A stretch of DNA of 64,000 nucleotides from Nitrosopumilus sp. (GTDB lineage: Archaea; Thermoproteota; Nitrososphaeria; Nitrososphaerales; Nitrosopumilaceae): contig OZ241857.1 in assembly GCA_965203315.1 (NCBI GenBank), positions 448,001 through 512,000 of the forward strand, in the 5' to 3' direction. Positions 1,156-60,493 of the stretch are shown here, in pieces (position 1 is the first letter of the stretch; each line of letters begins with the position of its first letter). The notes under the pieces were generated by a model. That model was not told the DNA's origin. It did not search any database and saw only the letters and a program-made list of their open reading frames with translations. The position numbers and the translations under genes are program-made.

Positions 1156-2988
1156 GTGAAGACAGTACAGATCCACTCGTTCCAGCTGGTACCGCTAAAC
1201 CTAGAGTTTGCATCGAGTTCTACACAGGTGGCAGGAGTATCAGAACGAGACATCATAATATCGCAGTTTCTATCGTTATTTGACAAGCTAGAGAGTCCAT
1301 TCTGGCTAGATGTGATACGCGACTATGAAGAACTGTTATTCTACAAGACTCCTCGATACTGTGCCTTTGATAGTACAATACTAAACGTAACTGATGAAAA
1401 TCCAGAGAGCATTCTCAAAGGTGCAGGTGTAAAGTATACTACAGTATCATCACGCAAATGGAACATATCATACGAGTCACCAAACTATTGCAAGCTAGAA
1501 GATGATCTATACGCCAAAGCATACACATTATCAGTACTACATGACGATCTTGTACCTGGTTGGATATACGACATATATCGATATGCAGATGCATTGAGAA
1601 TATTTGTAGAACCGATACCTGTAGAAAAGTATCAGAGTATTATCGCAAATCACAAGACTGCAGCAATAACACTATCCTCTACATTAAAGATGGACTTGGC
1701 AGAGAACATTTCAATAATCAAAGAACTAGTACTGAACAAGAAACTAGAGAAATTATACTTTACCAAAGTCATACCTATCGTACTAGCCAAAGATCTAAAC
1801 ACATTAAATGAAAAACAAAAGTCCTTTGTACAAAACACAAAGAATGTTCCCGGTATCGATACTGCAAAGCATATACAATCACAGTTGATTCGCGGTAAAC
1901 TAGGACAGAACATCCTAATGTCAACATCTGCATTTCATGCATTACTGCCTTTTTGCACATCTGAACTATACGAAGATGGTGGCACACTACTCGGCGAGAA
2001 CATGCTTACCGGAAATCCTATACGATGGAACATCAACAACAGGTTAAACCGTAATACCGTACTTGCAGCTACATCGGGCTCTGGCAAGACTACACTTGCA
2101 ATGTTGATAATTCATGCATTTGAGAGAATGTATCCACAGAGTTTCATATTTGGTGTAGACCCAGAGAACGAGTATGCTGCACTAGGTCAAAACATGGGAT
2201 TCGAATACATTGATTACTCGTTTGGTCGCAAGATGGGTCTTGATCTATTCAAGATGGTACCAGACTCGTTCGCAGCTGCTGAAACTCTGTGTAATGCACT
2301 AGGAGTACCCGAGATAGACAGAATCCAACCAAACACAGCAGCTGCCAAACTAGCAGGTATGGATATCAAACAGCGTAGCTTTGCAGAGTTTTACAAGTAT
2401 CTACAAGAGTCTGATGACAAAGAGATCATTCGTTACTTTAAAGCACTAGCAAGTCCACCATACTCTGATTTCTTTGAAGGTAAGCCACCTGTATCCAACA
2501 AGATAATACTATCGCTCAAGAATATCGGCTCTGCAGGTGGAACAGTCCATCGGCTCATTACACAGATATCGTTATCATACGCGATGGGCAGAGCACTACT
2601 CATGCCAAAGATAATCCCCAAATTGTTCATGCTAGATGAGGTCTGGATGTTACTCCAACATGATACACTGGGAAATTACATACAAAATCTATCTCGGCGT
2701 GGAAGAAAGTACAACATCAATCTAATGATGGCTACACAGAATATAGAAGATATGACAGACAACATATCGGCAAGAAACGTTCTTGTAAACAGCGATACTG
2801 TCATGTTTCTACGACAGTCCGAAGCTACGATATCATCACTAAAAGAACACTTTGTGTTATCTGATAGGGCAGTATCATTTTTGTTGCAACTAGAACGTGG
2901 TCAAGCGTTGATCAAATATGGCAACAACATGGTACCTGCAAGGATTCTACCCGACAAGGCACAGTTGGAGCTATTTAGACCGAGATAA
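1156..2988 (+). CDS. VirB4/TraC-like conjugation ATPase (HerA/FtsK superfamily)
   Basis: Walker A ATSGSGKT, VDPENEY, Walker B FMLDEVW, RRGRKY..ATQ; TATA-like TTTTAAA about 25 nt before the GTG start. Confidence 0.8.
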   Translation: MKTVQIHSFQLVPLNLEFASSSTQVAGVSERDIIISQFLSLFDKLESPFWLDVIRDYEELLFYKTPRYCAFDSTILNVTDENPESILKGAGVKYTTVSSRKWNISYESPNYCKLEDDLYAKAYTLSVLHDDLVPGWIYDIYRYADALRIFVEPIPVEKYQSIIANHKTAAITLSSTLKMDLAENISIIKELVLNKKLEKLYFTKVIPIVLAKDLNTLNEKQKSFVQNTKNVPGIDTAKHIQSQLIRGKLGQNILMSTSAFHALLPFCTSELYEDGGTLLGENMLTGNPIRWNINNRLNRNTVLAATSGSGKTTLAMLIIHAFERMYPQSFIFGVDPENEYAALGQNMGFEYIDYSFGRKMGLDLFKMVPDSFAAAETLCNALGVPEIDRIQPNTAAAKLAGMDIKQRSFAEFYKYLQESDDKEIIRYFKALASPPYSDFFEGKPPVSNKIILSLKNIGSAGGTVHRLITQISLSYAMGRALLMPKIIPKLFMLDEVWMLLQHDTLGNYIQNLSRRGRKYNINLMMATQNIEDMTDNISARNVLVNSDTVMFLRQSEATISSLKEHFVLSDRAVSFLLQLERGQALIKYGNNMVPARILPDKAQLELFRPR

Positions 2989-2989
2989 G

Positions 2990-5623
2990 ATGCCACAGAC
3001 CATTACAAATCCCAATGACTATTCCGTAATAGGATATCTAGACAAGAGAAAGGTACTGGCTATTCCAAATATATCTAGACAGAATCTACTAATTCTAGGA
3101 GAGATAGGCTCTGGCAAATCTAGTATACTACGACTGTTGATATATCAAGATATTGTAGCAGGTAGAGGATTCCTACTAGCAGAGAATCACTCTGAACTAT
3201 CCAGAGAGATACTGTCGATGATTCCGCCAGAGCAATACCACAAGCTAGTGTACATTAGTCTGTCATCTATAAAAAAATACGACAAGACACTACGATTCAA
3301 TCCACTAGAGATGGATGATCCTCAAGATGCAGGAATGATTGCGTTAAACTTTACCGAGTGTTTAGCAAAAGCATTTGCTGACTCGTGGGGTGCACGAGTA
3401 GAGACATGTGCTAGAAACGGAGCACTATCGGTAATAGGCACACAGAGTAATACCATAGGTGCAATGTTAAAACTACTCACAGACAAGGACTTTCGTCAGA
3501 CGTTCATACCTGAAATAGCCAACAAACAGGCAAGAGATTTCTTTTCACACGTATATGACGAACAGTATCCAAAAGAGGCAGGAGGCGTAATATTCAACAA
3601 ACTCAACAAGATGCTGACTATACCAGAAATGGATGCAATGTTTAATACGAAAAAGTCATCGATATCATTTTTGGATATCATAAACAACGGTATGTATGTT
3701 GTACTAGATTTTGGCGGACTACCAAACGATATGGTGATGTTTCTAGGCAATGTCTTTCTGCATCTATTTTATACACAGTACAAGAAACGAGCCAAGAATA
3801 GATCTGGCATATACGATACATTCAATCTGTATCTAGACGAGGTACAAATGTTCTCACCACCGATGATTCGAGAGTTACTGAATACAGTTCGTAAATACGG
3901 TATAAAGGCCACAATAGCAACACAGTCGATAACTGCAGTAGGCAAAGAACTATCAGACGAGATAACAACGCTGTGTAGAGCAGTGGCATGTTTCAGGTGT
4001 GACAATACAACAGCATATCATCTAAAGTCTATCTTGCCTATCAAACCCGAAGCTCAACAACAGCTGTCGTTTCACTATTTTTCATACTATGGAGCAGGAG
4101 ATAAACCCATACGAGCGGTAGCCAAAACTAAACACATGAACATTCCAGACACATCAGAACAAGCAAGTAAAGCAAGCGTAATGAATCTAGGTTCGTTTAT
4201 ATCTCTAGACAAGTACTATACATCACAAGGTGGAAATGCAGATGTCGTACTATCACCACTAGAGTTTGGCATACTGAATCTATTACGAATGGAGAATAGA
4301 GACATGACCAAAAACGAGATAACAGAAAAGATAACTCGTATATTTGTAACCAATCCACGCGCAATAACAAACGCACTAAACGATACATTGGTCGCTACCA
4401 ATAGATTCGTTGCAATAAAAGACGTCATGTCAGACGATGGTGATGATAAACTAGAGACTAGATACGTGATCACCAAGACAGCACATTCTAAAATATTTAG
4501 TCATGCAGCAGCAGGTAGACGCGCAGGAAGTGATCTACATCTACGTACTATATTTACCATAATGGATCTACAAACAAATCTGTACTGTTACTGTATTCCC
4601 GATCTTGGTAAAAACACATCACAGAAGGCAGACCTTGTTATATTTTCACCAAAAAAGATCAAACCCAAAGATCCAAAACAAGAGACGTTATACGGAACAA
4701 AATTCCATCCAACCGAATGGTCAGATAAAATAGTTGCGGTGGAGGTAGAGACTGCACCTAACAAACACTGGGATCAGATACACATCAACTATATAAAAAA
4801 TGAAAAGATGGGATACTTTACATGGTTTGTTGTATACGATGAGAATGCAAAACGAGGCATATATCACACACTGCAAGAACACGGTATATCTTCTCAAGAC
4901 TATTCGATACTAGTATATGACAAAAAGTCACTACTTGGCGCCGATATCTCTCTAGTTCGTTCAGATATTGAGTCGTGTATATGGAAAGTAATATTTGACA
5001 ACAGAGGTGCAACCGTACAGAATATCTGCGATTCACTAGTAGATTATGATAAATCGGATATCAAGAGAGCGATACAACACATGAGTGAAACGGGAGCATT
5101 AGAATCTAGACGGAATAAGAGTGACACAGCTGATATCTGGTGTATATCTGCAATACGTAACGCCAGTAATGATTCACTGGGTGTAGAGGCCATACCTGGA
5201 ACAACACCACAAGACAAGGAGCGATATGCAGCAACACGAGAGATATCTGACGTATCTGTCGATGTCAATCCAAATACAGTACAAGATACATCTTTGAATA
5301 TCGAAAAAATACTAGATCATCCGGTGGTTCGAACTAGACCGACTCTAGACGATCATATCTTTACAGATACACCGATATCTGATGTGCAGGACTCGCAAAC
5401 ATCTAGTTCTATCCCGGATAAAGAGTGTACAGATGCCAAACCAGACATGACAAACGTGCAGTTGCTAGAGTACTGGATCAACATACATGATCTGACTGAT
5501 CCAGAATCTCAATCAGTACTAAAGGATATTGAAGCAAAGTTGATGAACCGAGGATTAATGGTAAAATCTAGAAGAGGCAAGTTCTTTCTATCAAAGATTC
5601 CCAAAAATCAAAAGTCCAAGTAG
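2990..5623 (+). CDS. VirD4/TraD-like coupling ATPase fused to wHTH and PD-(D/E)xK-like (replication-relaxation-like) C-terminal domains
   Basis: GEIGSGKS, FNPLE, LYLDEVQ, RKYG..ATQ; C-terminal H..IPD..ADLVIF..AVEVET; ATG directly after the VirB4-like stop. Confidence 0.7.
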   Translation: MPQTITNPNDYSVIGYLDKRKVLAIPNISRQNLLILGEIGSGKSSILRLLIYQDIVAGRGFLLAENHSELSREILSMIPPEQYHKLVYISLSSIKKYDKTLRFNPLEMDDPQDAGMIALNFTECLAKAFADSWGARVETCARNGALSVIGTQSNTIGAMLKLLTDKDFRQTFIPEIANKQARDFFSHVYDEQYPKEAGGVIFNKLNKMLTIPEMDAMFNTKKSSISFLDIINNGMYVVLDFGGLPNDMVMFLGNVFLHLFYTQYKKRAKNRSGIYDTFNLYLDEVQMFSPPMIRELLNTVRKYGIKATIATQSITAVGKELSDEITTLCRAVACFRCDNTTAYHLKSILPIKPEAQQQLSFHYFSYYGAGDKPIRAVAKTKHMNIPDTSEQASKASVMNLGSFISLDKYYTSQGGNADVVLSPLEFGILNLLRMENRDMTKNEITEKITRIFVTNPRAITNALNDTLVATNRFVAIKDVMSDDGDDKLETRYVITKTAHSKIFSHAAAGRRAGSDLHLRTIFTIMDLQTNLYCYCIPDLGKNTSQKADLVIFSPKKIKPKDPKQETLYGTKFHPTEWSDKIVAVEVETAPNKHWDQIHINYIKNEKMGYFTWFVVYDENAKRGIYHTLQEHGISSQDYSILVYDKKSLLGADISLVRSDIESCIWKVIFDNRGATVQNICDSLVDYDKSDIKRAIQHMSETGALESRRNKSDTADIWCISAIRNASNDSLGVEAIPGTTPQDKERYAATREISDVSVDVNPNTVQDTSLNIEKILDHPVVRTRPTLDDHIFTDTPISDVQDSQTSSSIPDKECTDAKPDMTNVQLLEYWINIHDLTDPESQSVLKDIEAKLMNRGLMVKSRRGKFFLSKIPKNQKSK

Positions 5624-8991: not shown

Positions 8992-11358
8992 TTATGATTT
9001 TTTGAATAATTTAGTAAACGAGTCTTCAGTCATACTTTCATTTTTAATGAAACTTTCGAGGCGATCATATAAGATGATTTGCCACTTGTCTTTTTTGAAA
9101 TAATCGGAAAACAATGGTTCGGTTTTCTTTCGCTCAAAAAATTTCATTCTTTCGTTAGGCAACACGATTATCCTTTTGACTTCGTGAGAGCTTATGTTGG
9201 AGCCACGTTCCAATGCAGTTGTAATGCCTGTAGAGTTTTCAACTTCGAACGCGTATTTGATTTTCCCCTCTTTCATCCACAAAACGTCAATTAGTTTTAT
9301 TCTATCGCTGTTTGGAATACTATCAAGATCGAAATCTATACAAATGTTGCTCATTTCAGAATTTTTTGACTTGTCAGGCGACCAAACATCGTAACCAAAT
9401 TTTACTCCAATTTTCATCAAAACGGTTTCTATACTTGTATGTTTTGATAATATTTCGCTCTCATTCATTCCTAACTTTAGTTTCCACATACCGTCGCTTG
9501 TTTTTTCACCATATTCGTTCAAGTAGTATCCAACATTTTCTGTGTCTGGCGTAAGTGAGTTTGGAAACTTTTCAAAGATACTTCCAAGTACTTGATCGTA
9601 AGTTACTTTATAATTTTGCCGCAATACATTTAGAACAGCTTCTTCAACTCTGTCAGATAGCGGAATGCTGAGCTTTGATTTTTTAATTACAGAGTCAGTA
9701 AACCACCACAATTCATTTTTAATTTTTATGAAATCCTTACTTTTGTCGAGTATTGTTGATATTTGATTGTCTGACGAAAAATGAATTCGCATCCCTGACT
9801 GTCCCATCTCTTCATACATGTGTGGAATCATTGCAGCTATTTCTGTAGGTTCACCACGTTGGCTGAGTACCTCTTTAGCTATTCTCTCCACAATACTCTC
9901 GAATTTAATTTCTACAAAATCAGTCAGTTTAGTGACACTCTCATCTTTTTTTGGTTTTCTAAACCGGATGTAAAAATCACTCACGGAAGTACCCCATGGA
10001 CTAACTGCACCCGTTTCCCCAGCTCTTCTATTCATCTGAAACAAAATTTTTTCTAGTACGAATCCACTGTTTTGACATGCCTTTAGTATAGAGTTGAATA
10101 TTTTTGGTTTACTGTTGTGAAATGTTACTGTCATATACTTTCCTCCTTTCAAAACTCTGAAAATTTGATCAAATACAAGATCTAGCCTTCTATGATATTC
10201 TTCAAAGTCTATTTTCTTATGAGAATCAATTGTAATTTCATCATCAAACGGAATTGTAAATCTGTCGTCAACAAGTGCCAACCATGCACTCCAAATAAAG
10301 CTCAAATCAAAGTAAGCGATTAATCCTCCATAAGGAGGATCAGTTATCACATAATCTATACTGTTGTCCTTGAGAAAGTTTACCATTTCTAAAGCATTTG
10401 TTTGTGATAACAATACAGTGCTATCAAAATTTAAATCTTGAACGGTTTTGGCAAATTTGACCTTGTCCATTAATCTTTCATTAGAGTTTATTTTTCCCTT
10501 AATAATTCCTTGGTTACCTTCTATTGCTCTTTCAAACTGTAGGAATGGATTCAATTCCATGTTCTTTTTCGGTTTCATGTATGATGGTCTCCCCCAGCTG
10601 CCAGAACCAACTCTGCCAGAATGCTCTCTGACACTTGGTATGCTCGATACAAGATGAACCATCGATATAAAAGCAAATTTGAAAAAATCTTTTAGAACTA
10701 TATCATCAACCTTGTTAATTCTATTAAAAATTACTGCAAGAGCAAAAAGATTACGTCTAGTAAATAACTCCTCATACGTTTCACCATAATTTCTTCGAGC
10801 CATATCAAAAGCAGCAGTATGTGGAAATTTTTGCTTTGGATATTGAAACTTTATGTCATGTACATTGGAGATAGAGATTGCTTTCTTGTCGTTTTGATCT
10901 AGTGATTTTTCTTGATATTTTTTGACACATGAGCATTTGTAAAAAATTGTGTATGGAATGTCGTCCACTCGATTCACTGTAACTAGTCTTGCGTTATTTC
11001 CACAGCGGATACACAGCGTTGCAAAAAAGTTAGATCCTTTCTCATACTTGTCTAGATCTTTTTTTATCTTATTCCACTCTTTATTGAATTTGGATATATC
11101 TAGTGGTTTTAAAATCATTTTTGCTTGAAAGATTGCTATTGGATTCAAGTCAATGCCTATGGCTTTACGTCCATTTCTTACAGATTCAGCGACTCCCACA
11201 CCACGGCCACAAAAAGGATCTAAAACAACATCGTTGCTTTCTGTGTACTTTTTAATGTATTCTGCCCATATGTTGTGAGGTTTACCGCCCCACCACTTCA
11301 TCATCTTGTACATCATTGGCCTTTTGTTTTCTACAAGTGCAGTGTTGATATGATCCAT
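8992..11358 (-). CDS. DNA adenine methyltransferase fused to a C-terminal PD-(D/E)xK-like nuclease domain
   Basis: DPFCGRG, CxxC..CxC, ITDPPY; C-terminal IDVLW..AFEVENS. Confidence 0.75.
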   Translation of the reverse strand: MDHINTALVENKRPMMYKMMKWWGGKPHNIWAEYIKKYTESNDVVLDPFCGRGVGVAESVRNGRKAIGIDLNPIAIFQAKMILKPLDISKFNKEWNKIKKDLDKYEKGSNFFATLCIRCGNNARLVTVNRVDDIPYTIFYKCSCVKKYQEKSLDQNDKKAISISNVHDIKFQYPKQKFPHTAAFDMARRNYGETYEELFTRRNLFALAVIFNRINKVDDIVLKDFFKFAFISMVHLVSSIPSVREHSGRVGSGSWGRPSYMKPKKNMELNPFLQFERAIEGNQGIIKGKINSNERLMDKVKFAKTVQDLNFDSTVLLSQTNALEMVNFLKDNSIDYVITDPPYGGLIAYFDLSFIWSAWLALVDDRFTIPFDDEITIDSHKKIDFEEYHRRLDLVFDQIFRVLKGGKYMTVTFHNSKPKIFNSILKACQNSGFVLEKILFQMNRRAGETGAVSPWGTSVSDFYIRFRKPKKDESVTKLTDFVEIKFESIVERIAKEVLSQRGEPTEIAAMIPHMYEEMGQSGMRIHFSSDNQISTILDKSKDFIKIKNELWWFTDSVIKKSKLSIPLSDRVEEAVLNVLRQNYKVTYDQVLGSIFEKFPNSLTPDTENVGYYLNEYGEKTSDGMWKLKLGMNESEILSKHTSIETVLMKIGVKFGYDVWSPDKSKNSEMSNICIDFDLDSIPNSDRIKLIDVLWMKEGKIKYAFEVENSTGITTALERGSNISSHEVKRIIVLPNERMKFFERKKTEPLFSDYFKKDKWQIILYDRLESFIKNESMTEDSFTKLFKKS

Positions 11359-25163: not shown

Positions 25164-25571
25164 ATGAGTGATGTGGCATATGAGATTTTACCAAAATGTA
25201 CAGTCACTAGATCGTTAAACGATGATACCAGTACAGTATTGAGCCGATCAACGACTATTGTCTTTTGTACCATGCATGACAGAGAACCACATATTGCTCC
25301 CGTGTGGTTTGTTACATACAGTAACAAAATCCTAGTTGGTAAAGACATGTTTCACCAGTACAAGCAACTAATGCATAACAAGTATCAAGATCTAAAGATT
25401 AATCGTTTTGTTGAGAGCATAGAGTATATGACTGTACTAATTCTGGCGATAGTCATAACATTGATTCCGAGAGATACAACACAAGGAGAACCTATGATCT
25501 ATACTAGAGGTAATAGTCCTTACCGTAACATGCCACAAAAAATTAACTCAGAGAAAGGAGGCAAGGAATGA
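25164..25571 (+). pseudogene. Degenerate copy of the pyridoxamine-5'-phosphate oxidase-like gene at 29059
   Basis: Shares EPHIAPVWF and YKQLMHNKYQD; internal deletion and unrelated 3' end. Confidence 0.6.
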
Positions 25572-27877
25572 AGAAGAATACTGACCCACTAGAATCTGCA
25601 ACTAGAAAAAAGATAGACCAAATCCTAATCAATCTAGAATGGAATACTGACGAATTTTCTAACAAGTGTAACGTGTTTACAGAAAGAGTAAAGACCAAAG
25701 AACAAACAAAACTGCTTAAAAAGATTAGTGGTTACAAAAAACCGCCAGACTATGTTTTGTATGAATCCAATACGGACAAACCTATAGCAATTATTGAAGC
25801 TAAGAGAATTGGACAATCCATGGAAGGTGCACTAAACCAAGCAATTACAAATTATGCAGAACCTCTCAATGTAGATTTAATCTTCACTACAGACGGAACA
25901 ATCGTTCAAGCATTTGATAACCGTAGTAAAAATAATCTCCTTATGGATGATCAAATAGTTACTGATTTTCTTGATGAGCAAACAGTTTTGAAATTTATTG
26001 AGGATGGTTACAAACTATACACTTCTGAAAAATTCTCCCACACAAAACGTGAACTAATTGAAATTTTTTCAAACGCAAATGATATTTTGAGAGAAGAGGG
26101 AATAAGGCAAGGAATTGAGAGATTTACCGAATTTTCTAATTTATTGTTCCTGAAATTAATCAGTGAAAAAGAAAAAGCACGAGAAGCTAAAGGTGAGAAA
26201 AGAATATTAGAAAAAAAATACTGTTGGGAATCATTCTGTGACAAAGAGCCAGAACTTGTACTGGATTACATTAACAAAATCATTCTTCCAAGATTAGTTG
26301 ACAGATACAATGGCAGTGGAGAGGTTTTTCAGAAGGAATTGAAGATAAAAACACCTGAAATTCTTAAAGAAATTGTAGATCAACTATCTACTCTTAAACT
26401 ATATGATACTGATTCTGATGTAAAAGGTGATGCATTTGAGTACTTTTTAAAAAATGCCCTAATCGTAGGCAAGGATTTGGGAGAACATTTCACACCTAGA
26501 AACATAGTCAAACTAATGGTAGATTTGATTAGTCCTAGTTTTGGTGAAAAAGTTTATGATCCTGCATGTGGTACAGGCGGATTTTTGATAGAAGCATTCA
26601 GACACATCAAAGCTAAAATTAAACATACTAGAGATAACATAAAAGTTTTAGAACAAGACACAATCTATGGACGAGAGTTAACTGCAACTGCAAAGATAGC
26701 CAAAATGAACATGATTGTGAGCGGAGATGGACACACAAACATTCAACAGATGGATAGCCTAAAAAATCCACTTAAAAACGAGTATGAGACAATTCTTACA
26801 AACATACCCTTTTCACAAAAAACCAAACATTCAAGTCTTCATGGGTTTACTACCACCGATGCAAACCCTGTATTTTTGAAACATGTTATAGATGCCTTAA
26901 GCGATGGTGGAAGATCTGCTGTCATTGTTCCTGATGGATTATTATTTGACAAAGGCTCGGAATACCAAAAAATCCGAAAGATACTGCTTACAACTTGTAA
27001 TGTAATAGCTATAATCCAATTACATCCTTATGTTTTCTCACCATACACCAAACAGCCCACATGTATAGTTGTTTTCCAGAAAGGACAATCGACTAAAGAT
27101 GTATGGTTCTTTGAGGTGGATAATGATGGGTTCAAGAAGACAGACAGTAAGAAAGGAAGGCCACCCATTGAGAAAGATGATTTGAAATTGTTAAGAGAGA
27201 TTTGGAATGACAAATCTGATTCATCCCATTCTTTCTCGATAAATTATAAAACAATCGAAAAAAACTATTACAAGTTGAACATGAATGCATACAAGCAAAG
27301 AAAAACACGTAAAGTTCCCACTATGCCTCTAAGCGAACTATGTACTATAGATATTGGTGGAACCCCTCCAAGAGGAAATCGAGAGTATTGGACAGGAGAC
27401 CATGTTTGGGTAAAAATTGCCGATATGTTAGGTAAAAAAACAATTACTGAATCTGGAGAAACCATCACTGACAAAGGCATTGAAAAATCCAACGTAAAAG
27501 AACTCAAAGAGGGAACTTTGTTGTTTAGTTTTAAACTCACGCTGGGTAGAGTGGCATTTGCGGGAAAGGCTCTATACACAAATGAAGCAATAGCAGGATT
27601 AAACCCAATAGATAAGGATGATAAATATTTGATGAGATATTTGTACTATATACTACCTACTCTTGATTTTGCACCGTGGTCCCAAAGAGCTACCAAAGGA
27701 TTCACAATGAACAAGGATTCGATAGGAGATATTGAGATTCCAATGCCCTCGCCCTATATGCGACAAAAAATTGTCGAGACGGGAGAGAATAATGAAGAGA
27801 GAAAACAAGATCTTTTTGACCAAATTGACAAAATCGATGATTCGCAGATCGATTTTATTAAAAAATCAACTTGTTGA
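25568..27877 (+). CDS. Single-chain type I-like/IIG RM enzyme (HsdR_N nuclease, N6-MTase, one TRD)
   Basis: PDY..IIEAK, GEHFTPR, DPACGTGGF, TNIPF, GGTP..WVKIAD..TNEAI. Confidence 0.85.
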   Translation: MKKNTDPLESATRKKIDQILINLEWNTDEFSNKCNVFTERVKTKEQTKLLKKISGYKKPPDYVLYESNTDKPIAIIEAKRIGQSMEGALNQAITNYAEPLNVDLIFTTDGTIVQAFDNRSKNNLLMDDQIVTDFLDEQTVLKFIEDGYKLYTSEKFSHTKRELIEIFSNANDILREEGIRQGIERFTEFSNLLFLKLISEKEKAREAKGEKRILEKKYCWESFCDKEPELVLDYINKIILPRLVDRYNGSGEVFQKELKIKTPEILKEIVDQLSTLKLYDTDSDVKGDAFEYFLKNALIVGKDLGEHFTPRNIVKLMVDLISPSFGEKVYDPACGTGGFLIEAFRHIKAKIKHTRDNIKVLEQDTIYGRELTATAKIAKMNMIVSGDGHTNIQQMDSLKNPLKNEYETILTNIPFSQKTKHSSLHGFTTTDANPVFLKHVIDALSDGGRSAVIVPDGLLFDKGSEYQKIRKILLTTCNVIAIIQLHPYVFSPYTKQPTCIVVFQKGQSTKDVWFFEVDNDGFKKTDSKKGRPPIEKDDLKLLREIWNDKSDSSHSFSINYKTIEKNYYKLNMNAYKQRKTRKVPTMPLSELCTIDIGGTPPRGNREYWTGDHVWVKIADMLGKKTITESGETITDKGIEKSNVKELKEGTLLFSFKLTLGRVAFAGKALYTNEAIAGLNPIDKDDKYLMRYLYYILPTLDFAPWSQRATKGFTMNKDSIGDIEIPMPSPYMRQKIVETGENNEERKQDLFDQIDKIDDSQIDFIKKSTC

Positions 27878-33311: not shown

Positions 33312-33611
33312 TCAAGCAGATCGACTCCTGTTATCTCGTAATCGTTTATTGGTACATTTGCAGTTTCGTTCTTTGATGTGTACGACAGACTTTGAGTCTG
33401 TATCGGATTTATCATATTTTGATATTAAAAGATAGTCATCAATTTTAATCCCCAGACTAGCTAGATGCTCAATGTTATTACACAAGAATTCTAGATCATC
33501 TGCTATCTCTTTTAGTCTAGTTCGGATACGGCGCTTGTATAATTTCTTGTTTGCAGCAGACAAGACTCCTGGCGAACTGACCACTTGTCTCTCTATATCA
33601 CTTAGACACAT
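33312..33611 (-). CDS. Small basic helical protein, paralogue 1
   Basis: MCLSDIERQVVSSP..YKRRIRTRLKEIADDLEFL; overlaps the actin-like stop. Confidence 0.65.
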   Translation of the reverse strand: MCLSDIERQVVSSPGVLSAANKKLYKRRIRTRLKEIADDLEFLCNNIEHLASLGIKIDDYLLISKYDKSDTDSKSVVHIKERNCKCTNKRLRDNRSRSA

Positions 33612-34468
33612 TTTGCCTGCCTCAACATTCCTAGTGCGTTTGCAAATACTGGCTCTTTAGCTACTTGTAAATTGGATATCGTATCGTTTCTGATCTCTGA
33701 TATCAACTTTGGTATTAATGCTCCTCCGCCTGCACATATTACAGGTAGGTTTGAATAATTTAAAACGACCTTTTCTAATGCATTTGAAATCGTACCTGCT
33801 AAAACTTTACGATACTGTGCTAGCTCGTTATCTCGTCTCTGAAATACAGTACTGTCTAGATACTCTACCATCGAAGTAGATATGGCATCTGTGATATCTC
33901 CAACTCCGTTCATTATAGTCTGACCATACGCAATATCGTCTCCAATCACTACCATTATCTCGGTTGTACCGTGGCCGATATGACATACGATACCATTCTG
34001 TATATTCTCATGTATCAGAGTGGCGCGTGCTTGGTACATCATTCCAAAGAACTTTGGTTTGAATCTCTCTACAACTGCAGCCTTGATCTGTTTTGATTTA
34101 TGTCGAGCTACATAAGGTATACCTGCGACTATAATCAAATCTTCATAGCTCTTTGGAGCATTATAGATGGGTTCTGTATGCGCCTTGAGAACTCTGTCCA
34201 AGGCATGTTGTATCAGAGCTAGATAGTCTCTCATGGATGTAGGCGCACCTCTATACACGGGAGTCTTTAGAACTATGGAGCGAATCGGTTCTAGCTTTAC
34301 TGCCGCATCACCTACTGCATACACTTCACTAGATTGATTGAGATCTAGTTTGTGCCCTCTTGCAATAACTGATGGAAACTTGAACTGTTGTGTACTGGTT
34401 GCGACCTTGACAGTCCCAGTCCCAATGTCTAGTCCAACTGTATTCAGATTCAACAATCTATACAGCAA
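33602..34468 (-). CDS. ParM/MreB-like actin-fold ATPase
   Basis: Phosphate-1 GLDIGTGTVK, FPS, phosphate-2 HIGHGTTE, adenosine AGGGA, ANALG. Confidence 0.85.
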   Translation of the reverse strand: MLYRLLNLNTVGLDIGTGTVKVATSTQQFKFPSVIARGHKLDLNQSSEVYAVGDAAVKLEPIRSIVLKTPVYRGAPTSMRDYLALIQHALDRVLKAHTEPIYNAPKSYEDLIIVAGIPYVARHKSKQIKAAVVERFKPKFFGMMYQARATLIHENIQNGIVCHIGHGTTEIMVVIGDDIAYGQTIMNGVGDITDAISTSMVEYLDSTVFQRRDNELAQYRKVLAGTISNALEKVVLNYSNLPVICAGGGALIPKLISEIRNDTISNLQVAKEPVFANALGMLRQAKCV

Positions 34469-35553: not shown

Positions 35554-35631
35554 AGCTCAGCATGCCAGTAATGGCACATCCTCTCTTTTTTCTAATTTTA
35601 CAATACAATCTTGAAATTTTACGCTACCCAC

Positions 35632-35726
35632 AGGGGCGAGACAGGCGATGATTATTCACCCAGCACTGAGAGAGTTTGACCCCTCTCAATGATGAATCTG
35701 GCGTTGTATGAGTCCTCGAATCCCCT
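35632..35726 (+). ncRNA. Box C/D guide RNA A1 (BHB-flanked)
   Basis: C ATGATTA, guide ttcacccagca, D' CTGA, gagag/ctctc hairpin, C' ATGATGA, guide atctggcgttgt, D ATGA. Confidence 0.8.
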
Positions 35727-35767
35727 ACTTTATAATTCTCACTTTTCGCCAGATTTGGCTTTTGTAA

Positions 35768-35834
35768 AGTGAGGGCGATGATGAGAGAAACGACGTCTGA
35801 CTCTGATGGGCGTTACGATAACTGAGCCCTCACT
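35768..35834 (+). ncRNA. Box C/D guide RNA B1
   Basis: 9-bp stem agtgagggc/gccctcact, C ATGATGA, gagaaacgacgt, CTGA, C' CTGATGG, gcgttacgataa, CTGA. Confidence 0.85.
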
Positions 35835-35868
35835 GTATGTACATTTCTTCTAACTATTAACTGTAATC

Positions 35869-35960
35869 GGGCGAGACAGGCGATGATGAGACGGAGCTAT
35901 ATGAGAGGGCATAGCCCCCTCAATGATTAGAGCCTGTTAATCAGAGTCCTCGAATCCCCT
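35869..35960 (+). ncRNA. Box C/D guide RNA A2 (BHB-flanked)
   Basis: C ATGATGA, gacggagctat, D' ATGA, gaggg/ccctc hairpin, C' ATGATTA, gagcctgttaat, D CAGA. Confidence 0.8.
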
Positions 35961-36001
35961 ACTTAATAATTTTCACTTTCAGCCAGATTTGGCTTTTGTA
36001 A

Positions 36002-36070
36002 AGTGAGGGCGATGATGAGAGAAACGAAATCTGACTCCATGATGAGTTACGACTAGTCTGAGCCCTCACT
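36002..36070 (+). ncRNA. Box C/D guide RNA B2 (all four boxes consensus)
   Basis: agtgagggc-g-ATGATGA-gagaaacgaaat-CTGA-ctcc-ATGATGA-gttacgactagt-CTGA-gccctcact. Confidence 0.92.
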
Positions 36071-36105
36071 GTCTGTACATTTCTTCTAACTATTAACTGT
36101 AATCT

Positions 36106-36196
36106 GGCGAGACAGACGATGAAGAGTAAGAACTCCACTGAGAGTGTTTGACCCCTCTCAATGATGAATGAGTTGCACAGAGTCCTCGAATCCCCT
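36106..36196 (+). ncRNA. Box C/D guide RNA A3 (BHB-flanked)
   Basis: C ATGAAGA, gtaagaactcca, CTGA, hairpin, C' ATGATGA, atgagttgca, D CAGA. Confidence 0.8.
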
Positions 36197-36236
36197 ACTT
36201 AATAATTCTCGCTTGTTGCCAGATTTGGCTTTGTAA

Positions 36237-36307
36237 AGTGAGGGCAATGATGAGTGAAACGACGTCTGACATCTAGTGATGAAAGATAACCTGTCTGAGC
36301 CCTCACT
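36237..36307 (+). ncRNA. Box C/D guide RNA B3
   Basis: Stem, ATGATGA, gtgaaacgacgt, CTGA, GTGATGA, aagataacctgt, CTGA, stem. Confidence 0.9.
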
Positions 36308-36340
36308 GTTTGTACATTTTGCTAGCTATTAACTGTACTT

Positions 36341-36430
36341 GGCCGCGACAGACGATGATTATTAACTCAACACTGAGAGAAGATACTCCTCTCATTGATG
36401 AATCTGGCGTTGTAAGTCATCGAATTCACC
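36341..36430 (+). ncRNA. Box C/D guide RNA A4, degenerate (D box and BHB eroded)
   Basis: ATGATTA, ttaactcaaca, CTGA, hairpin, TTGATGA, atctggcgttg, no clear D box. Confidence 0.6.
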
Positions 36431-36470
36431 ATGTTAGAATTATCCCTTTTCGCCAGATTTGGCTTTGTAA

Positions 36471-36537
36471 AGTGAGGGCAATGATGAGTGAAACGACTTC
36501 TGACTCTGATGAGTTACGACTAGTTTGAGCCCTCGCT
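36471..36537 (+). ncRNA. Box C/D guide RNA B4
   Basis: Stem agtgagggc/gccctcgct (G-U retained), ATGATGA, gtgaaacgactt, CTGA, CTGATGA, gttacgactagt, TTGA. Confidence 0.85.
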
Positions 36538-36569
36538 TGCTGTACATTTCGTCGAGTTATTACATCTAC

Positions 36570-36666
36570 AGGGGCGAGACAGACGATGAGGATGGATAGG
36601 AAATCTGAGGGCGTTTGACCACCTCTCAATGATGAACGAATCACATTCCGAGTCCTCGAACCCCCT
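36570..36666 (+). ncRNA. Box C/D guide RNA A5 (perfect BHB)
   Basis: agggg-cgag-aca-gac, ATGAGGA, tggataggaaat, CTGA, hairpin, ATGATGA, acgaatcacatt, CCGA, gtc-ctcg-aac-cccct. Confidence 0.8.
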
Positions 36667-37285: not shown

Positions 37286-37894
37286 ATGAGCGACGAAAAA
37301 ACCAACAGACTATCTCGTAGAGAACAGATTCGCAAGTCTCTCAGAGACAATACAAAGTATACGTCGATTCTAACTGCAGGTGTATCGGCACTTGTGATGG
37401 GAGTTATGGCACTACTTGTAACTCCACCAGAACAAGATGCATATGCGCTAGCAATCATGGGAATCGGCATATCCTTTATTATCGCAAGTATCGTAGGGCT
37501 GATAATGGCATCGCAGACAGATGAGATTGCAGCTCGTATTTATGAGCGATTCGACAGACAAGATGAATTAGCAGAGAGACGTCATCAAGAGATGATATCA
37601 GTACTCAAAGAGATATCCAATAAACTAGACGCATTAGACAAGCTAGACAAGCTAGATGTCATGGATAGTAAACTGGACGTCATAGTCAACAACACCACCA
37701 AACTGGATGTCATAGTCAACAAACTAGACACCATAGACAACAACACCACCACCAAACTGGATGTCATAGTCAACAAACTAGACACCATAGACAACAACAC
37801 CACCACCAAACTGGATGTCATAGTCAACAAACTAGACACCATAGACAGTAAACTAGACACCATAGACAACAACACTAGACCATCTAATGCGTAG
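37286..37894 (+). CDS. 2-TM coiled-coil repeat protein, copy 1 (202 aa)
   Basis: Two TM helices, GISFIIASIVGLIMA..ERFDRQ, KLDVIVNKLDTIDNNTTT repeats. Confidence 0.8.
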   Translation: MSDEKTNRLSRREQIRKSLRDNTKYTSILTAGVSALVMGVMALLVTPPEQDAYALAIMGIGISFIIASIVGLIMASQTDEIAARIYERFDRQDELAERRHQEMISVLKEISNKLDALDKLDKLDVMDSKLDVIVNNTTKLDVIVNKLDTIDNNTTTKLDVIVNKLDTIDNNTTTKLDVIVNKLDTIDSKLDTIDNNTRPSNA

Positions 37895-38079
37895 CAAAAA
37901 ACCCAAAATCTTTTTTCTCGACTGAGACGTAAATCCCAAACCCGCATGGAATTTCTAATTTCCCCACACACTAGACTCAGCTAGGCAGGGTGTGCGGATT
38001 AACTGAACCATATCTCATATTCCTGTACGTATAATCTAGTTCAGAGAGTACCAGGTTGAGTGAGACAATTGAAAAAAGC

Positions 38080-38658
38080 ATGAGCGACGAAAAAACCAAC
38101 AGACTATCTCGTAGAGAACAGATTCGCAAGTCTCTCAGAGACAATACAAAGTATACGTCGATTCTAACTGCAGGTGTATCGGCACTTGTGATGGGAGTTA
38201 TGGCACTACTTGTAACTCCACCAGAACAAGATGCATATGCGCTAGCAATCATGGGAATCGGCATATCCTTTATTATCGCAAGTATCGTAGGGCTGATAAT
38301 GGCATCGCAGACAGATGAGATTGCAGCTCGTATTTATGAGCGATTCGACAGACAAGATGAATTAGCAGAGAGACGTCATCAAGAGATGATATCAGTACTC
38401 AAAGAGATATCCAATAAACTAGACGCATTAGACAAGCTAGACAAGCTAGATGTCATGGATAGTAAACTGGATGTCATAGTCAACAAACTAGACACCATAG
38501 ACAACAACACCACCACCAAACTGGATGTCATAGTCAACAAACTAGACACCATAGACAACAACACCACCACCAAACTGGATGTCATAGTCAACAAACTAGA
38601 CACCATAGACAGTAAACTAGACACCATAGACAACAACACTAGACCATCTAATGCGTAG
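38080..38658 (+). CDS. 2-TM coiled-coil repeat protein, copy 2 (192 aa)
   Basis: As copy 1, 10 aa shorter. Confidence 0.8.
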   Translation: MSDEKTNRLSRREQIRKSLRDNTKYTSILTAGVSALVMGVMALLVTPPEQDAYALAIMGIGISFIIASIVGLIMASQTDEIAARIYERFDRQDELAERRHQEMISVLKEISNKLDALDKLDKLDVMDSKLDVIVNKLDTIDNNTTTKLDVIVNKLDTIDNNTTTKLDVIVNKLDTIDSKLDTIDNNTRPSNA

Positions 38659-38843
38659 CAAAAAACCCAAAATCTTTTTTCTCGACTGAGACGTAAATCC
38701 CAAACCCGCATGGAATTTCTAATTTCCCCACACACTAGACTCAGCTAGGCAGGGTGTGCGGATTAACTGAACCATATCTCATATTCCTGTACGTATAATC
38801 TAGTTCAGAGAGTACCAGGTTGAGTGAGACAATTGAAAAAAGC

Positions 38844-39368
38844 ATGAGCGACGAAAAAACCAACAGACTATCTCGTAGAGAACAGATTCGCAAGTCTCTC
38901 AGAGACAATACAAAGTATACGTCGATTCTAACTGCAGGTGTATCGGCACTTGTGATGGGAGTTATGGCACTACTTGTAACTCCACCAGAACAAGATGCAT
39001 ATGCGCTAGCAATCATGGGAATCGGCATATCCTTTATTATCGCAAGTATCGTAGGGCTGATAATGGCATCGCAGACAGATGAGATTGCAGCTCGTATTTA
39101 TGAGCGATTCGACAGACAAGATGAATTAGCAGAGAGACGTCATCAAGAGATGATATCAGTACTCAAAGAGATATCCAATAAACTAGACGCATTAGACAAG
39201 CTAGACAAGCTAGATGTCATGGATAGTAAACTGGATGTCATAGTCAACAAACTAGACACCATAGACAACAACACCACCACCAAACTGGATGTCATAGTCA
39301 ACAAACTAGACACCATAGACAGTAAACTAGACACCATAGACAACAACACTAGACCATCTAATGCGTAG
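38844..39368 (+). CDS. 2-TM coiled-coil repeat protein, copy 3 (174 aa)
   Basis: As copy 2, one 18-aa repeat shorter. Confidence 0.8.
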   Translation: MSDEKTNRLSRREQIRKSLRDNTKYTSILTAGVSALVMGVMALLVTPPEQDAYALAIMGIGISFIIASIVGLIMASQTDEIAARIYERFDRQDELAERRHQEMISVLKEISNKLDALDKLDKLDVMDSKLDVIVNKLDTIDNNTTTKLDVIVNKLDTIDSKLDTIDNNTRPSNA

Positions 39369-41903: not shown

Positions 41904-41948
41904 AGATGGCGTGTATCTCAAACCCACATCCCATTTTTGAGGATAAAA

Positions 41949-42770
41949 ATGAGTCAAGTAAGAACCTCTGAGAAAGCCAGAGAGATACTAGTCGAACTAG
42001 CAGAAAAGTTCGGCAAGACCGAATTCGTAGACAGTTCGGCCAAGATGTTGATAGATGCTCGTACATATGCAAAGCCATCGAGCTCATGGTCATTGGGTAA
42101 TCAACTAGCAATGTACTTTGGTGGTACCATGGATGCAAGAGGATACAATCAATGGAACGCAGTAGGACGACATGTCAAGAAAGGAGCAAAGGCAATCTAC
42201 ATTCTAGGTCCAATGACTAGAAAGATCGAGCCCAAGGAGGGTGAAGACGAACGAATCATAATAACTGGATTTAGAGCGATACCCGTATTCCGATTCGAAG
42301 ATACAAAAGGTAAACCACTAAAAGAGTACAAACCCAAGACACTTCCACCGTTGTATCATCTAGCAGAAGAGAATGATATCAAGGTAGAGTATATCGAATC
42401 TAGACATGGTGAATATGGTTCGATACACATTCCAACAAAGAACATGACGCTGAGTACAGAGTCGCCGGATACGTTCTTGCACGAACTGATGCATCTATAC
42501 GACAACAAGAGTCAAGAACTGAAACCAGGACAAGACCCCATACAAGAGACTGTAGCACAGCTTGGTGCATGTGTTCTAGCCAAGATGTATGGATATGACG
42601 TAGAGGCACATACATGGAACTATATCTCAGCATATGCGGGTTCAAAAGATCCCAAAGCTGTTGGCAACATGTGCTTCAAGGTATTACAACGTGTTCAGCT
42701 AGCAATAAACAAGATACTAGATGATGCACAAGAACTGAAACCAATCGAGGCAAGTATAACAAAGATGTAG
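41949..42770 (+). CDS. ArdC-like antirestriction protein (ssDNA-binding domain plus zincin HExxH domain)
   Basis: WSLGNQL, GYNQWNAVGRHVKKGAKAIYILGP, PVF, LHELMH, ETVAQL. Confidence 0.8.
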   Translation: MSQVRTSEKAREILVELAEKFGKTEFVDSSAKMLIDARTYAKPSSSWSLGNQLAMYFGGTMDARGYNQWNAVGRHVKKGAKAIYILGPMTRKIEPKEGEDERIIITGFRAIPVFRFEDTKGKPLKEYKPKTLPPLYHLAEENDIKVEYIESRHGEYGSIHIPTKNMTLSTESPDTFLHELMHLYDNKSQELKPGQDPIQETVAQLGACVLAKMYGYDVEAHTWNYISAYAGSKDPKAVGNMCFKVLQRVQLAINKILDDAQELKPIEASITKM

Positions 42771-58524: not shown

Positions 58525-59235
58525 ATGGACAATAAAGAAATTGAGATCATTGAGTTAAGATATCTTAATGAGATCAACTGGCACTTTACAAATGAAATGG
58601 ATAAAATCATTAAACTATTACAAACAAAAGATATCATAAAGGACCACTGGAAACATATATTCGATAGAAAAGACAAGAAAAGTCAGACAGGTGAAATGTC
58701 AAGAGGAGTAGAACGTGTATTTGGGGCATTTTTTCCAAATACATGGTTGCCAAACTCGACTCCTGTGGGTGCAGATTTCATGTTTGAGACAATCGATTCA
58801 ATAATACATGTTGATACAAAGACTGCTAAATTAGATAATGAAGTAGATCATAGAGGTAAGGTCGCTCTTAGTTTAAATCAAACCAGCTATTATCTAACTA
58901 TAGATGATAGAATTAGTGGTAATTTACCACAGTTTTATAATTTACCAAACAGCACAGTAAAGAAAAAACTAACAACAACGTATATGATTCATACTGTTTA
59001 TGATGAAAAAGATTATACTGTGTGTTGCATAGTACTGATTTGTGTTCCAAACGGTCAATTACATTCAGTGTATGGAGATGACATCATGGATAGAGGTAAA
59101 GCAAAAGATAATTCATTTAGATACAGGTATGGAGATCAAACATTTAGATTATTAAACGGACACATTCCTAGATACACAGTACCATTTTGTAAATCTAAAG
59201 AGATAAAACATAAAATCACATCTTTAAAACTGTAA
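58525..59235 (+). CDS. Putative type II restriction endonuclease
   Basis: GVER, GADFMF..VDTKT PD-(D/E)xK-like; convergent with an MTase. Confidence 0.55.
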   Translation: MDNKEIEIIELRYLNEINWHFTNEMDKIIKLLQTKDIIKDHWKHIFDRKDKKSQTGEMSRGVERVFGAFFPNTWLPNSTPVGADFMFETIDSIIHVDTKTAKLDNEVDHRGKVALSLNQTSYYLTIDDRISGNLPQFYNLPNSTVKKKLTTTYMIHTVYDEKDYTVCCIVLICVPNGQLHSVYGDDIMDRGKAKDNSFRYRYGDQTFRLLNGHIPRYTVPFCKSKEIKHKITSLKL

Positions 59236-60493
59236 CATCTTTACCAACTATTCTCTTAATTATATTAATGTATGTGGGATTTAATTCAATACCTATACTG
59301 TTGTTATGTAGTGATTGTGCTACTTTAAGTGTAGTTCCAGATCCACAGAATGGATCTAGTACAATTCCATTTTTAGGGCAACATGCTTTGATACACATCT
59401 CGGGTAATTTTTCAGGAAAAGGAGCAAAATGCTTCTCTTTAATTGATGATGTGGCCATCTCCCACACATCACTAGGATTCTTACCCTTTTCATGATGTCG
59501 AACTGTTTGCAATACATAATGTTGTTCGGTCATGATATTATCGTATTTCGTATTGCCTAATTCTAATATCTTTTTTAGTTTGTTCCATTGTATAGGATCA
59601 GGTAAAGAACTACCGCCATCATCTAATCGAAACCAATGCCCAGCTGTATGTGTGGTACCTAGTTTATAATCTATGTGTGGAATATCGACACCGATCTTTT
59701 TTCTCTGTGTACGAAGCATTTTAATAATTTCAATCTTTTCTTGTTTAGTAATGTGATGTTTACGTTGTAAAGAATAATATTCACCATTTATGTTTAGTCG
59801 ACCACCTGCACTTGCACCTACATTGATCGTTTGCTGACCCTTGAACTTACCATTATATTCTTTTGTGCGAATCATTTTTGAATATTTTTCAAAGTCTTTA
59901 ATAGATATTGTACGAGGTAGATAATCATTTAATGTTTTTTGTTGAGTTTTATGAGGTATACGTATTTTATCTAGATCAAAATAATAATCAGGCGTAGTAT
60001 AGTTATCAGTATCTTTCACAAACATGTAAATAACTTCATATGCATTAGTAAACCGATCTGTTATGGGACTTGGATTTGGATTTGTCTTATGCCAGATGAT
60101 CTTATTTCGTATTACGTATCCATTCTCAACCATCTTTATGGCTAGTCGCTCTGGGATCATCTGTAATGATTTACGATGGTATTTGTCACCTATGTTTAGA
60201 AAATATACCCCTGTATTCTTTAAGACCCGATACAATTCCATGTTTATTTCTAACAATTTTTCAATATATTCTTCTGGTGTGGATTCTTTTCCTAATTCAC
60301 CATTTGTTTGGTAGTCTCTTTGATTCCAATATGGTGGCGAGGTAACAGCCACATCAACTAACCCCGAGGGCATGTTTTGTAGTGCGTGTAATGCGTTTGT
60401 ATTCAATATGATTGGTGCATGTGTGTTGGAAAACAACTTGTTGATTGATAATTTGTTTATGGGCAATGAGTTTTTTAGTAATGTTTTTGTCAT
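59216..60493 (-). CDS. N4/N6 DNA methyltransferase with an inserted HTH-like domain
   Basis: VTSPPYW, NIGD, HFAPFP, DPFCGSGTT. Confidence 0.85.
   Translation of the reverse strand: MTKTLLKNSLPINKLSINKLFSNTHAPIILNTNALHALQNMPSGLVDVAVTSPPYWNQRDYQTNGELGKESTPEEYIEKLLEINMELYRVLKNTGVYFLNIGDKYHRKSLQMIPERLAIKMVENGYVIRNKIIWHKTNPNPSPITDRFTNAYEVIYMFVKDTDNYTTPDYYFDLDKIRIPHKTQQKTLNDYLPRTISIKDFEKYSKMIRTKEYNGKFKGQQTINVGASAGGRLNINGEYYSLQRKHHITKQEKIEIIKMLRTQRKKIGVDIPHIDYKLGTTHTAGHWFRLDDGGSSLPDPIQWNKLKKILELGNTKYDNIMTEQHYVLQTVRHHEKGKNPSDVWEMATSSIKEKHFAPFPEKLPEMCIKACCPKNGIVLDPFCGSGTTLKVAQSLHNNSIGIELNPTYINIIKRIVGKDVTVLKM

Follow-up and report, generated by a model that had tools for sequence, protein, structure and literature searches.

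How would a box C/D guide RNA that lies outside any tRNA be cut out of its transcript and closed into a circle? The question is raised by a tandem array of such guides in Nitrosopumilus sp. (GenBank assembly GCA_965203315.1, contig OZ241857.1). We analyzed positions 448,001 to 512,000 of the forward strand of this contig; this whole stretch of 64,000 nucleotides (nt) is called the window, and the coordinates of the array refer to it. The array occupies 35632-36666 on the + strand and comprises five A-type and four B-type box C/D guide RNAs in alternation, with a repeat period of 234 nt (4.1 copies, 75% matches; Tandem Repeats Finder, TRF). The arms of the A units take the shape of the motif called bulge-helix-bulge (BHB), and comparison with relatives indicates that they are a real, conserved RNA structure. 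On structural grounds, we consider it probable that the A guides are excised by the tRNA splicing endonuclease (EndA), circularized by RtcB, and guide the 2'-O-methylation of rRNA.

The motif flanking the A-type guides

The A arms consist of an outer helix, a 4-bp central helix, and an inner helix, with two 3-nt bulges (hBHBh'), and they abut boxes C and D. A strict definition of hBHBh' as a splicing substrate is given in PMC3239211. The A units are listed here with their scores against R1, a covariance model built from all five.

35632..35726, + strand: A1, box C/D guide inside hBHBh'; 5' arm 35632-35646, 3' arm 35712-35726; R1 110.3 bits
35643-35720, + strand: predicted excised part of A1, 78 nt
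35869..35958, + strand: A2, same motif with a 3-bp outer helix; R1 92.4 bits; D guide pairs with large-subunit (LSU) rRNA 2542-2551
36106..36193, + strand: A3, same motif with a 2-bp outer helix; R1 96.6 bits
36337..36432, + strand: A4, eroded copy; R1 78.4 bits; guides nearly duplicate those of A1
36570..36666, + strand: A5, complete hBHBh'; R1 95.8 bits
36581-36660, + strand: predicted excised part of A5, 80 nt

A first-pass annotation of this DNA had paired the arms of A5 so as to leave two 3-nt bulges 3' of a 4-bp helix, and the sequence bears this out. The 5' arm reads AGGGG (36570-74), CGAG (36575-78), ACA (36579-81), and GAC (36582-84), followed by GATGA; on the 3' side, GA is followed by GTC (36652-54), CTCG (36655-58), AAC (36659-61), and CCCCT (36662-66). 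On either strand, the bulge is on the 3' side of the central helix. The same polarity is found in the intron of the host tRNA-Tyr, where a CTGT/ACAG helix is accompanied by bulges AGT and AAA. A1 has the layout of A5, with an inner helix GGC/GTC that includes one G.U pair and with AAT as the 3' bulge.

The annotation had extended the motif to A1-A3 and called A4 eroded. Both statements stand, and the central helix is exactly 4 bp in A1, A2, A3, and A5, but the outer helix, which measures 5 bp in A1 and A5 and 7 bp in most relatives, is only 3 bp in A2 and 2 bp in A3. A4 has lost it, retains two of the four central pairs, and has a D box without GA. Minimum-free-energy folding produced the motif exactly in A5 and with a 1-nt shift in A1; it was absent from the folds of A3 and A4. 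A kink-turn (K-turn) at the A arms was rejected as a candidate, the three positions after each bulge covarying as Watson-Crick pairs.

The remaining elements of the array are as follows; remarks on promoters, that is, on TATA-like boxes, were made by eye.

35594..35605, + strand: candidate archaeal TATA-like box, about 27-38 nt upstream of A1
35729..35759, + strand: A-to-B spacer with TATA-like TTTATAA (35729-35735) and hairpin GCCAGATTTGGC (35748-35759), then TTTT
35768..35834, + strand: B1, canonical box C/D guide with a 9-bp terminal stem; fold z = -3.06
36002..36070, + strand: B2, canonical box C/D guide; fold z = -3.46
36237..36307, + strand: B3, canonical box C/D guide; fold z = -4.43
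36471..36537, + strand: B4, canonical box C/D guide; fold z = -3.98; one changed pair in the terminal stem; D box TTGA

The spacer with its TATA-like box and hairpin recurs 3' of A2, A3, and A4, and its function we can only infer. To judge from their sequences, both A and B units are box C/D guides, with a predicted function in rRNA methylation and predicted binding of L7Ae, Nop5, and fibrillarin. Like canonical archaeal C/D small RNAs (sRNAs), they carry the four boxes C, D', C', and D, with guide spacers of about 12 nt; the guides measure 10-15 nt and match rRNA in antisense. In the B units, which fit strict C/D consensus patterns, we find a 9-bp terminal stem of the K-turn kind and a C box (G/A)ATGATGA, with CTGA as both D' and D box and a short spacer between D' and C'; the fold z-scores are -3.1 to -4.4. 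The A units depart from the canonical form in their C box, (A/G)CGATGA (degenerate, with C at position 2), in a D box that is only NNGA, in the BHB that replaces the terminal stem, and in the hairpin between D' and C'. Here, D' CTGA (ATGA in A2) is followed by a 4-5-bp hairpin and C' AATGATGA, an arrangement that gives a regular K-turn.

Conservation versus chance

The bare geometry of the motif carries little information. We scanned the genome for 3-4-3 arrangements with Watson-Crick central and inner helices, at least three outer pairs, and arms 50-120 nt apart, and obtained 1942 matches in 4.94 Mb, both strands included (0.39 per kb); after mononucleotide shuffling, contig C5 gave 0.30 per kb. 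In the array, only A5 satisfied these strict rules. Because there was no genome-wide enrichment over the shuffle, occurrence of the motif was dropped as an argument. We judge the A motif to be real and selected because it is conserved and covaries, not because of its occurrence in the array alone.

Of 150 other genomes of the genus, 12 had full-length matches to R1. In ten of these (11 loci) the match was A-type; the other two matched via B-like units only. A MAFFT alignment of 16 sequences, which was not fitted to structure, had 91.6% of cells paired and compensatory changes at 12 of 18 pairs. None of 500 shuffles reached this value, and slid controls gave 31-55%. Eleven rows of this set had themselves been found with R1, although the alignment itself is free of structure bias. 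RNAalifold, supplied with no structure, independently predicted the same arms.

With a second model, R2, another 150 genomes of the family were searched, and 13 gave matches; these belong to 7 of 27 genera. Among 21 R2 loci inspected by eye, the motif is kept in 14, one has only the 3' arm, and six are without it. When matches at E <= 1e-6 were pooled, they amounted to 28 distinct sequences, with 92.8% of cells paired, 16 of 18 pairs compensatory, 98.2% pairing in the central helix, and 100% in the inner 3-bp helix. The central helix occurs in covarying variants, namely CGAG/CTCG, CAAG/CTTG, CGGG/CCCG, and TGAG/CTCA. Both bulges are 3 nt long in all 28 sequences and every bulge starts with A; one of the 28 has a 1-nt insertion.

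These data bear on two readings in which EndA has no part. According to the first, the arms amount to a structured terminal stem and no more: it would serve to protect the ends of a linear guide or to set where they lie, or would bind a protein, and it would not be cleaved by EndA. Plain terminal stems are indeed present in the B units and in three relatives (L127, L129, and L130, in genomes G269 and G191) that have the A-type D'-hairpin-C' core and no BHB, and the bare geometry is frequent by chance. A plain stem, however, gives no reason for two exact 3-nt bulges, for a 4-bp stagger in 28 of 28 sequences, or for covariation in all helices. In addition, formation of the inner helix leaves boxes C and D without the 3-nt bulge of a K-turn, so that the linear form looks, by its sequence, like a precursor. 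We regard a purely protective or protein-binding stem as unlikely.

The second takes the arms for an inverted repeat at the DNA level, a site of recombination or transposition, and not for an RNA structure. In its favor, sequence identity in two copies in genome G073 starts 6 nt upstream of the RNA. Several arm helices contain G.U pairs, however, which would be A.C mismatches on the opposite strand and thus fit pairing in the + strand RNA better than a DNA repeat. R1 scores 10.4 bits on the minus strand versus 110.3 bits on the plus strand, and we saw no terminal inverted repeat that corresponds to the arms. This reading is disfavored, and we give it hardly any weight.

Probable excision, predicted targets and the A/B alternation

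The host genome, which is 99.98% complete, encodes two EndA paralogues (PF01974, 107.5 and 88.1 bits), RtcB (PF01139, 582 bits), and fibrillarin. The two EndA genes lie around C5:129395-129640 and C1:144187-144441. The two paralogues suggest an EndA of the heterotetrameric type. No match was found in this genome to the RNA-ligase family PF09414, which we take to be the family covering the ATP-dependent ligase that circularizes Thermococcus C/D sRNAs. Heterotetrameric EndA is described as tolerating relaxed motifs (PMC3239211).

With this machinery, EndA would cut both 3-nt bulges of an A unit, each after the second bulge nucleotide; this position is chosen because it is that of the canonical 37/38 intron site in the host tRNA-Tyr. 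RtcB would then close the excised piece of 78-80 nt into a circle. Circularization would place a linker of about 13 nt between boxes D and C in a K-loop-like form, and D'-hairpin-C' would provide a regular K-turn. The circular A guide would direct 2'-O-methylation of the host rRNA.

The precedent that the first-pass annotation had cited, a tRNA-Trp intron that serves as a C/D guide and is freed at a BHB, has indeed been published (PMC7714728, PMC12558985). This euryarchaeal intron (Haloferax, Pyrococcus, Thermococcus, and Halobacterium) is bounded by a BHB, cut by EndA, and circularized through the RtcB pathway (PMC7714728, PMC9014305, PMC12558985). The A units likewise are box C/D guides bounded by a BHB, but they lie outside any tRNA (ARAGORN found 0 tRNA genes in the window), and their exons would be a short leader and trailer or neighboring guide RNAs. 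Their predicted targets are in rRNA rather than in a host tRNA, and their lineage is the Nitrosopumilus family. A parallel outside tRNA is known from Thermoproteus, in whose permuted SRP RNA a BHB arises from leader and trailer; recombinant EndA cuts it, and ligation by RtcB gives a circularized functional form (PMC4731332). It resembles the A units in being a non-tRNA RNA with BHB-forming ends. It belongs to another RNA class, and its processing is documented by in vitro cleavage and RNA-seq junctions, whereas that of the A units is predicted from structure and covariation.

Circular forms of free-standing C/D guides exist in Thermococcales and Sulfolobales, where, in the available text of PMC7994747, the termini usually lack a canonical BHB. 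Circles of T. kodakarensis C/D sRNAs need the ATP-dependent ligase Rnl (PMC9014305). The A units differ from these RNAs in having a canonical BHB and in belonging to a host with no PF09414 match.

The guides themselves point to rRNA. Four of the 16 distinct guides form at least 10 contiguous Watson-Crick pairs with host 16S/23S rRNA, and seven form at least nine. In 300 shuffled guide sets the corresponding means were 0.14 and 0.76, with maxima of 2 and 4, and the sense control gave 0. The D guide of A1 forms 10 contiguous pairs with small-subunit (SSU) rRNA 922-931, and a D guide to these positions is retained in A1, A4, and most genus-level relatives, which argues for selection on rRNA targeting.

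To predict the modified nucleotides, the host rRNA was aligned to E. coli rRNA and the N+5 rule was applied. In E. coli numbering, the predicted sites are SSU C970 (A1 and A4), LSU A2451 (A2), LSU C2515 (A5), SSU C1407 (D' guides of the B units), and SSU G1494 (B2 and B4). Several of these are in functional centers of the ribosome: the D guide of A2 (35931-35942) points at A2451 in the peptidyl-transferase center, and B guides at 35789-35800 and 36050-36061 point at C1407 and G1494, which presumably pair with each other in helix 44. By hand alignment, the A2451 register recurs in one A-type RNA of genome G036 and in units of the G145 array described below. The best scored LSU matches of the two guides of A3 start at 831 and 855, 24 nt apart.

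Several observations weigh against excision and circularization. The outer helices of A2 and A3 are short and A4 is eroded. Bare BHB geometry is about as common in the genome as in the shuffle. The models used to collect the 28-sequence set already include the pairs, and its pairing values therefore lean towards structure. The plain stems of L127, L129, and L130 imply that the A-type core does not need the motif. No Rfam family matched the 64-kb window at the gathering score, to which we attach little weight, since Rfam C/D families are lineage-specific. None of the sequencing runs found to contain the locus is on record as RNA; of four runs assembled over it (X3, X4, X5, and X9), the contigs were of DNA type only, and X9, presumed to be RNA, yielded none, which says nothing about expression. 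Finally, cleavage, circularization, and the positions of the cuts are all inferred from structure.

The first-pass annotation had gone further and proposed that processing causes the strict A/B alternation. In that model, the array is a single polycistron that EndA would cut to release the A guides as circles, while joining of the exons by RtcB would free or concatenate the B guides. No TATA-like box is visible at about -26 of A2-A5, which therefore probably depend on upstream transcription; cleavage at the A bulges would separate pieces containing B, and the outer helix would keep the exon ends together. However, in ten other genomes of the genus the same motif is present on solitary A-type RNAs that adjoin no B unit. 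In these relatives, the RNA is preceded by a TATA-like box at a distance of about 30 nt and followed by a T-run. A TATA-like box also follows every A unit of the array, where it may start B-A transcripts, as well as the A-type RNAs of relatives.

Duplication is sufficient to account for the alternation. Besides the 234-nt TRF period with its 4.1 copies, there is a DNA contig from run X4, a run labeled as a different organism, in which precisely one 234-nt unit is missing (window 35747-35982); this reflects either copy-number variation of the array or assembly collapse. A second array (L022 and L025; G145:C2:119122-123606, minus strand) is built of 14 or more B-like units with a repeat length of about 245 nt. 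A D'-C' hairpin is present in every unit, together with a T-run and a TATA-like box, and the array shows neither BHB nor alternation. Several of its guides resemble guides of the window array. The A family is older than the array and is a single gene in relatives. On the strength of the period, the X4 contig, the lone A genes, and the G145 array, the alternation appears to have arisen by tandem duplication of a 234-nt A+B unit. The claim that the motif explains it is not supported, and the polycistron model as a whole seems to us improbable, though worth keeping in mind.

Excision of single A guides by EndA and closure by RtcB, the reading we prefer, would have consequences beyond this array. 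EndA substrates named in the accessible parts of PMC7714728 and PMC4731332 are tRNA introns, pre-rRNA, two mRNAs, and the permuted SRP RNA. If the A guides are processed as proposed, they would form a new class of EndA substrate, and the first such case found in the Nitrosopumilus family. We found no description of BHB-flanked free-standing C/D guides in the literature, subscription journals and supplements being outside our coverage. In a 2021 review (PMC7994747), the circularization route of free-standing C/D sRNAs is called unclear, and mobile features of sRNA genes are said to be still to be discovered. The A family offers a testable answer to the former, namely a strict BHB that would recruit EndA and RtcB in a host without a PF09414 match. 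It is also a concrete case for the latter.

Mobile-element context

The window contains genes for conjugation-type ATPases resembling TraG/VirB4, for a ParM-like actin, and for a protein with an ArdC-like N-terminal domain; it also encodes three DNA methylases and no fewer than four transposases. Their positions are given jointly.

1156-5623, 8992-11358, 25568-27877, 33602-34468, 41937-42770, 59216-60493: mobile-type genes named above

The array thus looks to be within an integrated mobile region. Searches for similar DNA in plasmid and phage collections gave no match, and two pattern scans of viral contigs gave 0 matches each.

In relatives, A-type RNAs lie 25-37 nt upstream of open reading frames (ORFs) for IS6/IS240-like DDE transposases with a zinc-finger-like N-terminus (L011-L020, L024, L108, L122, L126, and L131). 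The 5' flank and outer arm of these RNAs, ATGAATCAAAGAG, repeat the first codons of the ORF (compare window 35622-35640), as if the flank were a duplicated 5' end of the transposase gene. At L002, L032, and L038, this place upstream of the transposase is taken by B-like and other C/D RNAs. These transposase relatives come from Nitrosopumilus and related taxa.

Could the BHB, then, bound an "intron" in the leader of an IS6-like transposase gene and control its expression, with guide activity secondary? An ORF of at least 200 amino acids (aa) begins at the above distance downstream of the A-type RNA at 7 of 11 genus-level loci (two are confirmed as PF13610), and a similar N-terminus was recognized by eye at 5 of 15 family-level loci. 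The repeated ORF start fits this explanation, as does a purine-rich GAGG motif that precedes the downstream ATG. On the other hand, no such transposase gene adjoins the array in the window. The host (G000) has many copies of this transposase family, none of them beside the array. Strong R1 matches were present at 2 of 77 transposase-relative loci, the other 75 having none at E <= 0.01, and the SSU 922-931 guide is kept in A1, A4, and most relatives of the genus. When the predicted exons of L016 and L024 were joined by hand, they ran into a stop codon and no ORF was restored; an intron that restores the transposase ORF was therefore rejected. Overall, we find control of transposase expression from the leader quite unlikely.

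Association of C/D guide-like genes with mobile DNA has been described for the MITE-like sRNA elements of Pyrobaculum calidifontis (PMC6009581). Those are short inverted-repeat elements with no BHB in the portion of the paper available, whereas the A family is linked to IS6/IS240-like transposases and a conjugation-type region. It is conceivable, although we would not bet on it, that C/D guide genes travel as cargo of mobile DNA, at the 5' ends of IS6-like elements and in arrays of conjugation regions. The BHB would let the host excise and circularize a guide from any transcript, and such guides would be transferable, programmable cassettes that re-methylate the centers of the ribosome. If so, the targets would include A2451, the C1407-G1494 pair, and C970, and their modification could alter sensitivity to drugs or toxins, or translation.

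Other features of the region and the host genome are recorded here. Directly 3' of the array, at window 37286-39368, are three tandem paralogous ORFs of about 180-200 aa with weak, sub-cutoff Pfam matches. Another insertion sequence (IS) of the same transposase family is present in the host in six near-identical copies (contig positions C1:430263, 579372, 1018784, 1511782, and 1924809, and C6:39805). These have terminal inverted repeats of about 26 bp, and no C/D RNA was noticed in the 5' stretch inspected. ARAGORN also reported a host tRNA-Gln (C1:40493-42191) and tRNA-Thr (C1:597739-599623) with "introns" of 1601 and 1787 nt, respectively, which may be false calls or large insertions.

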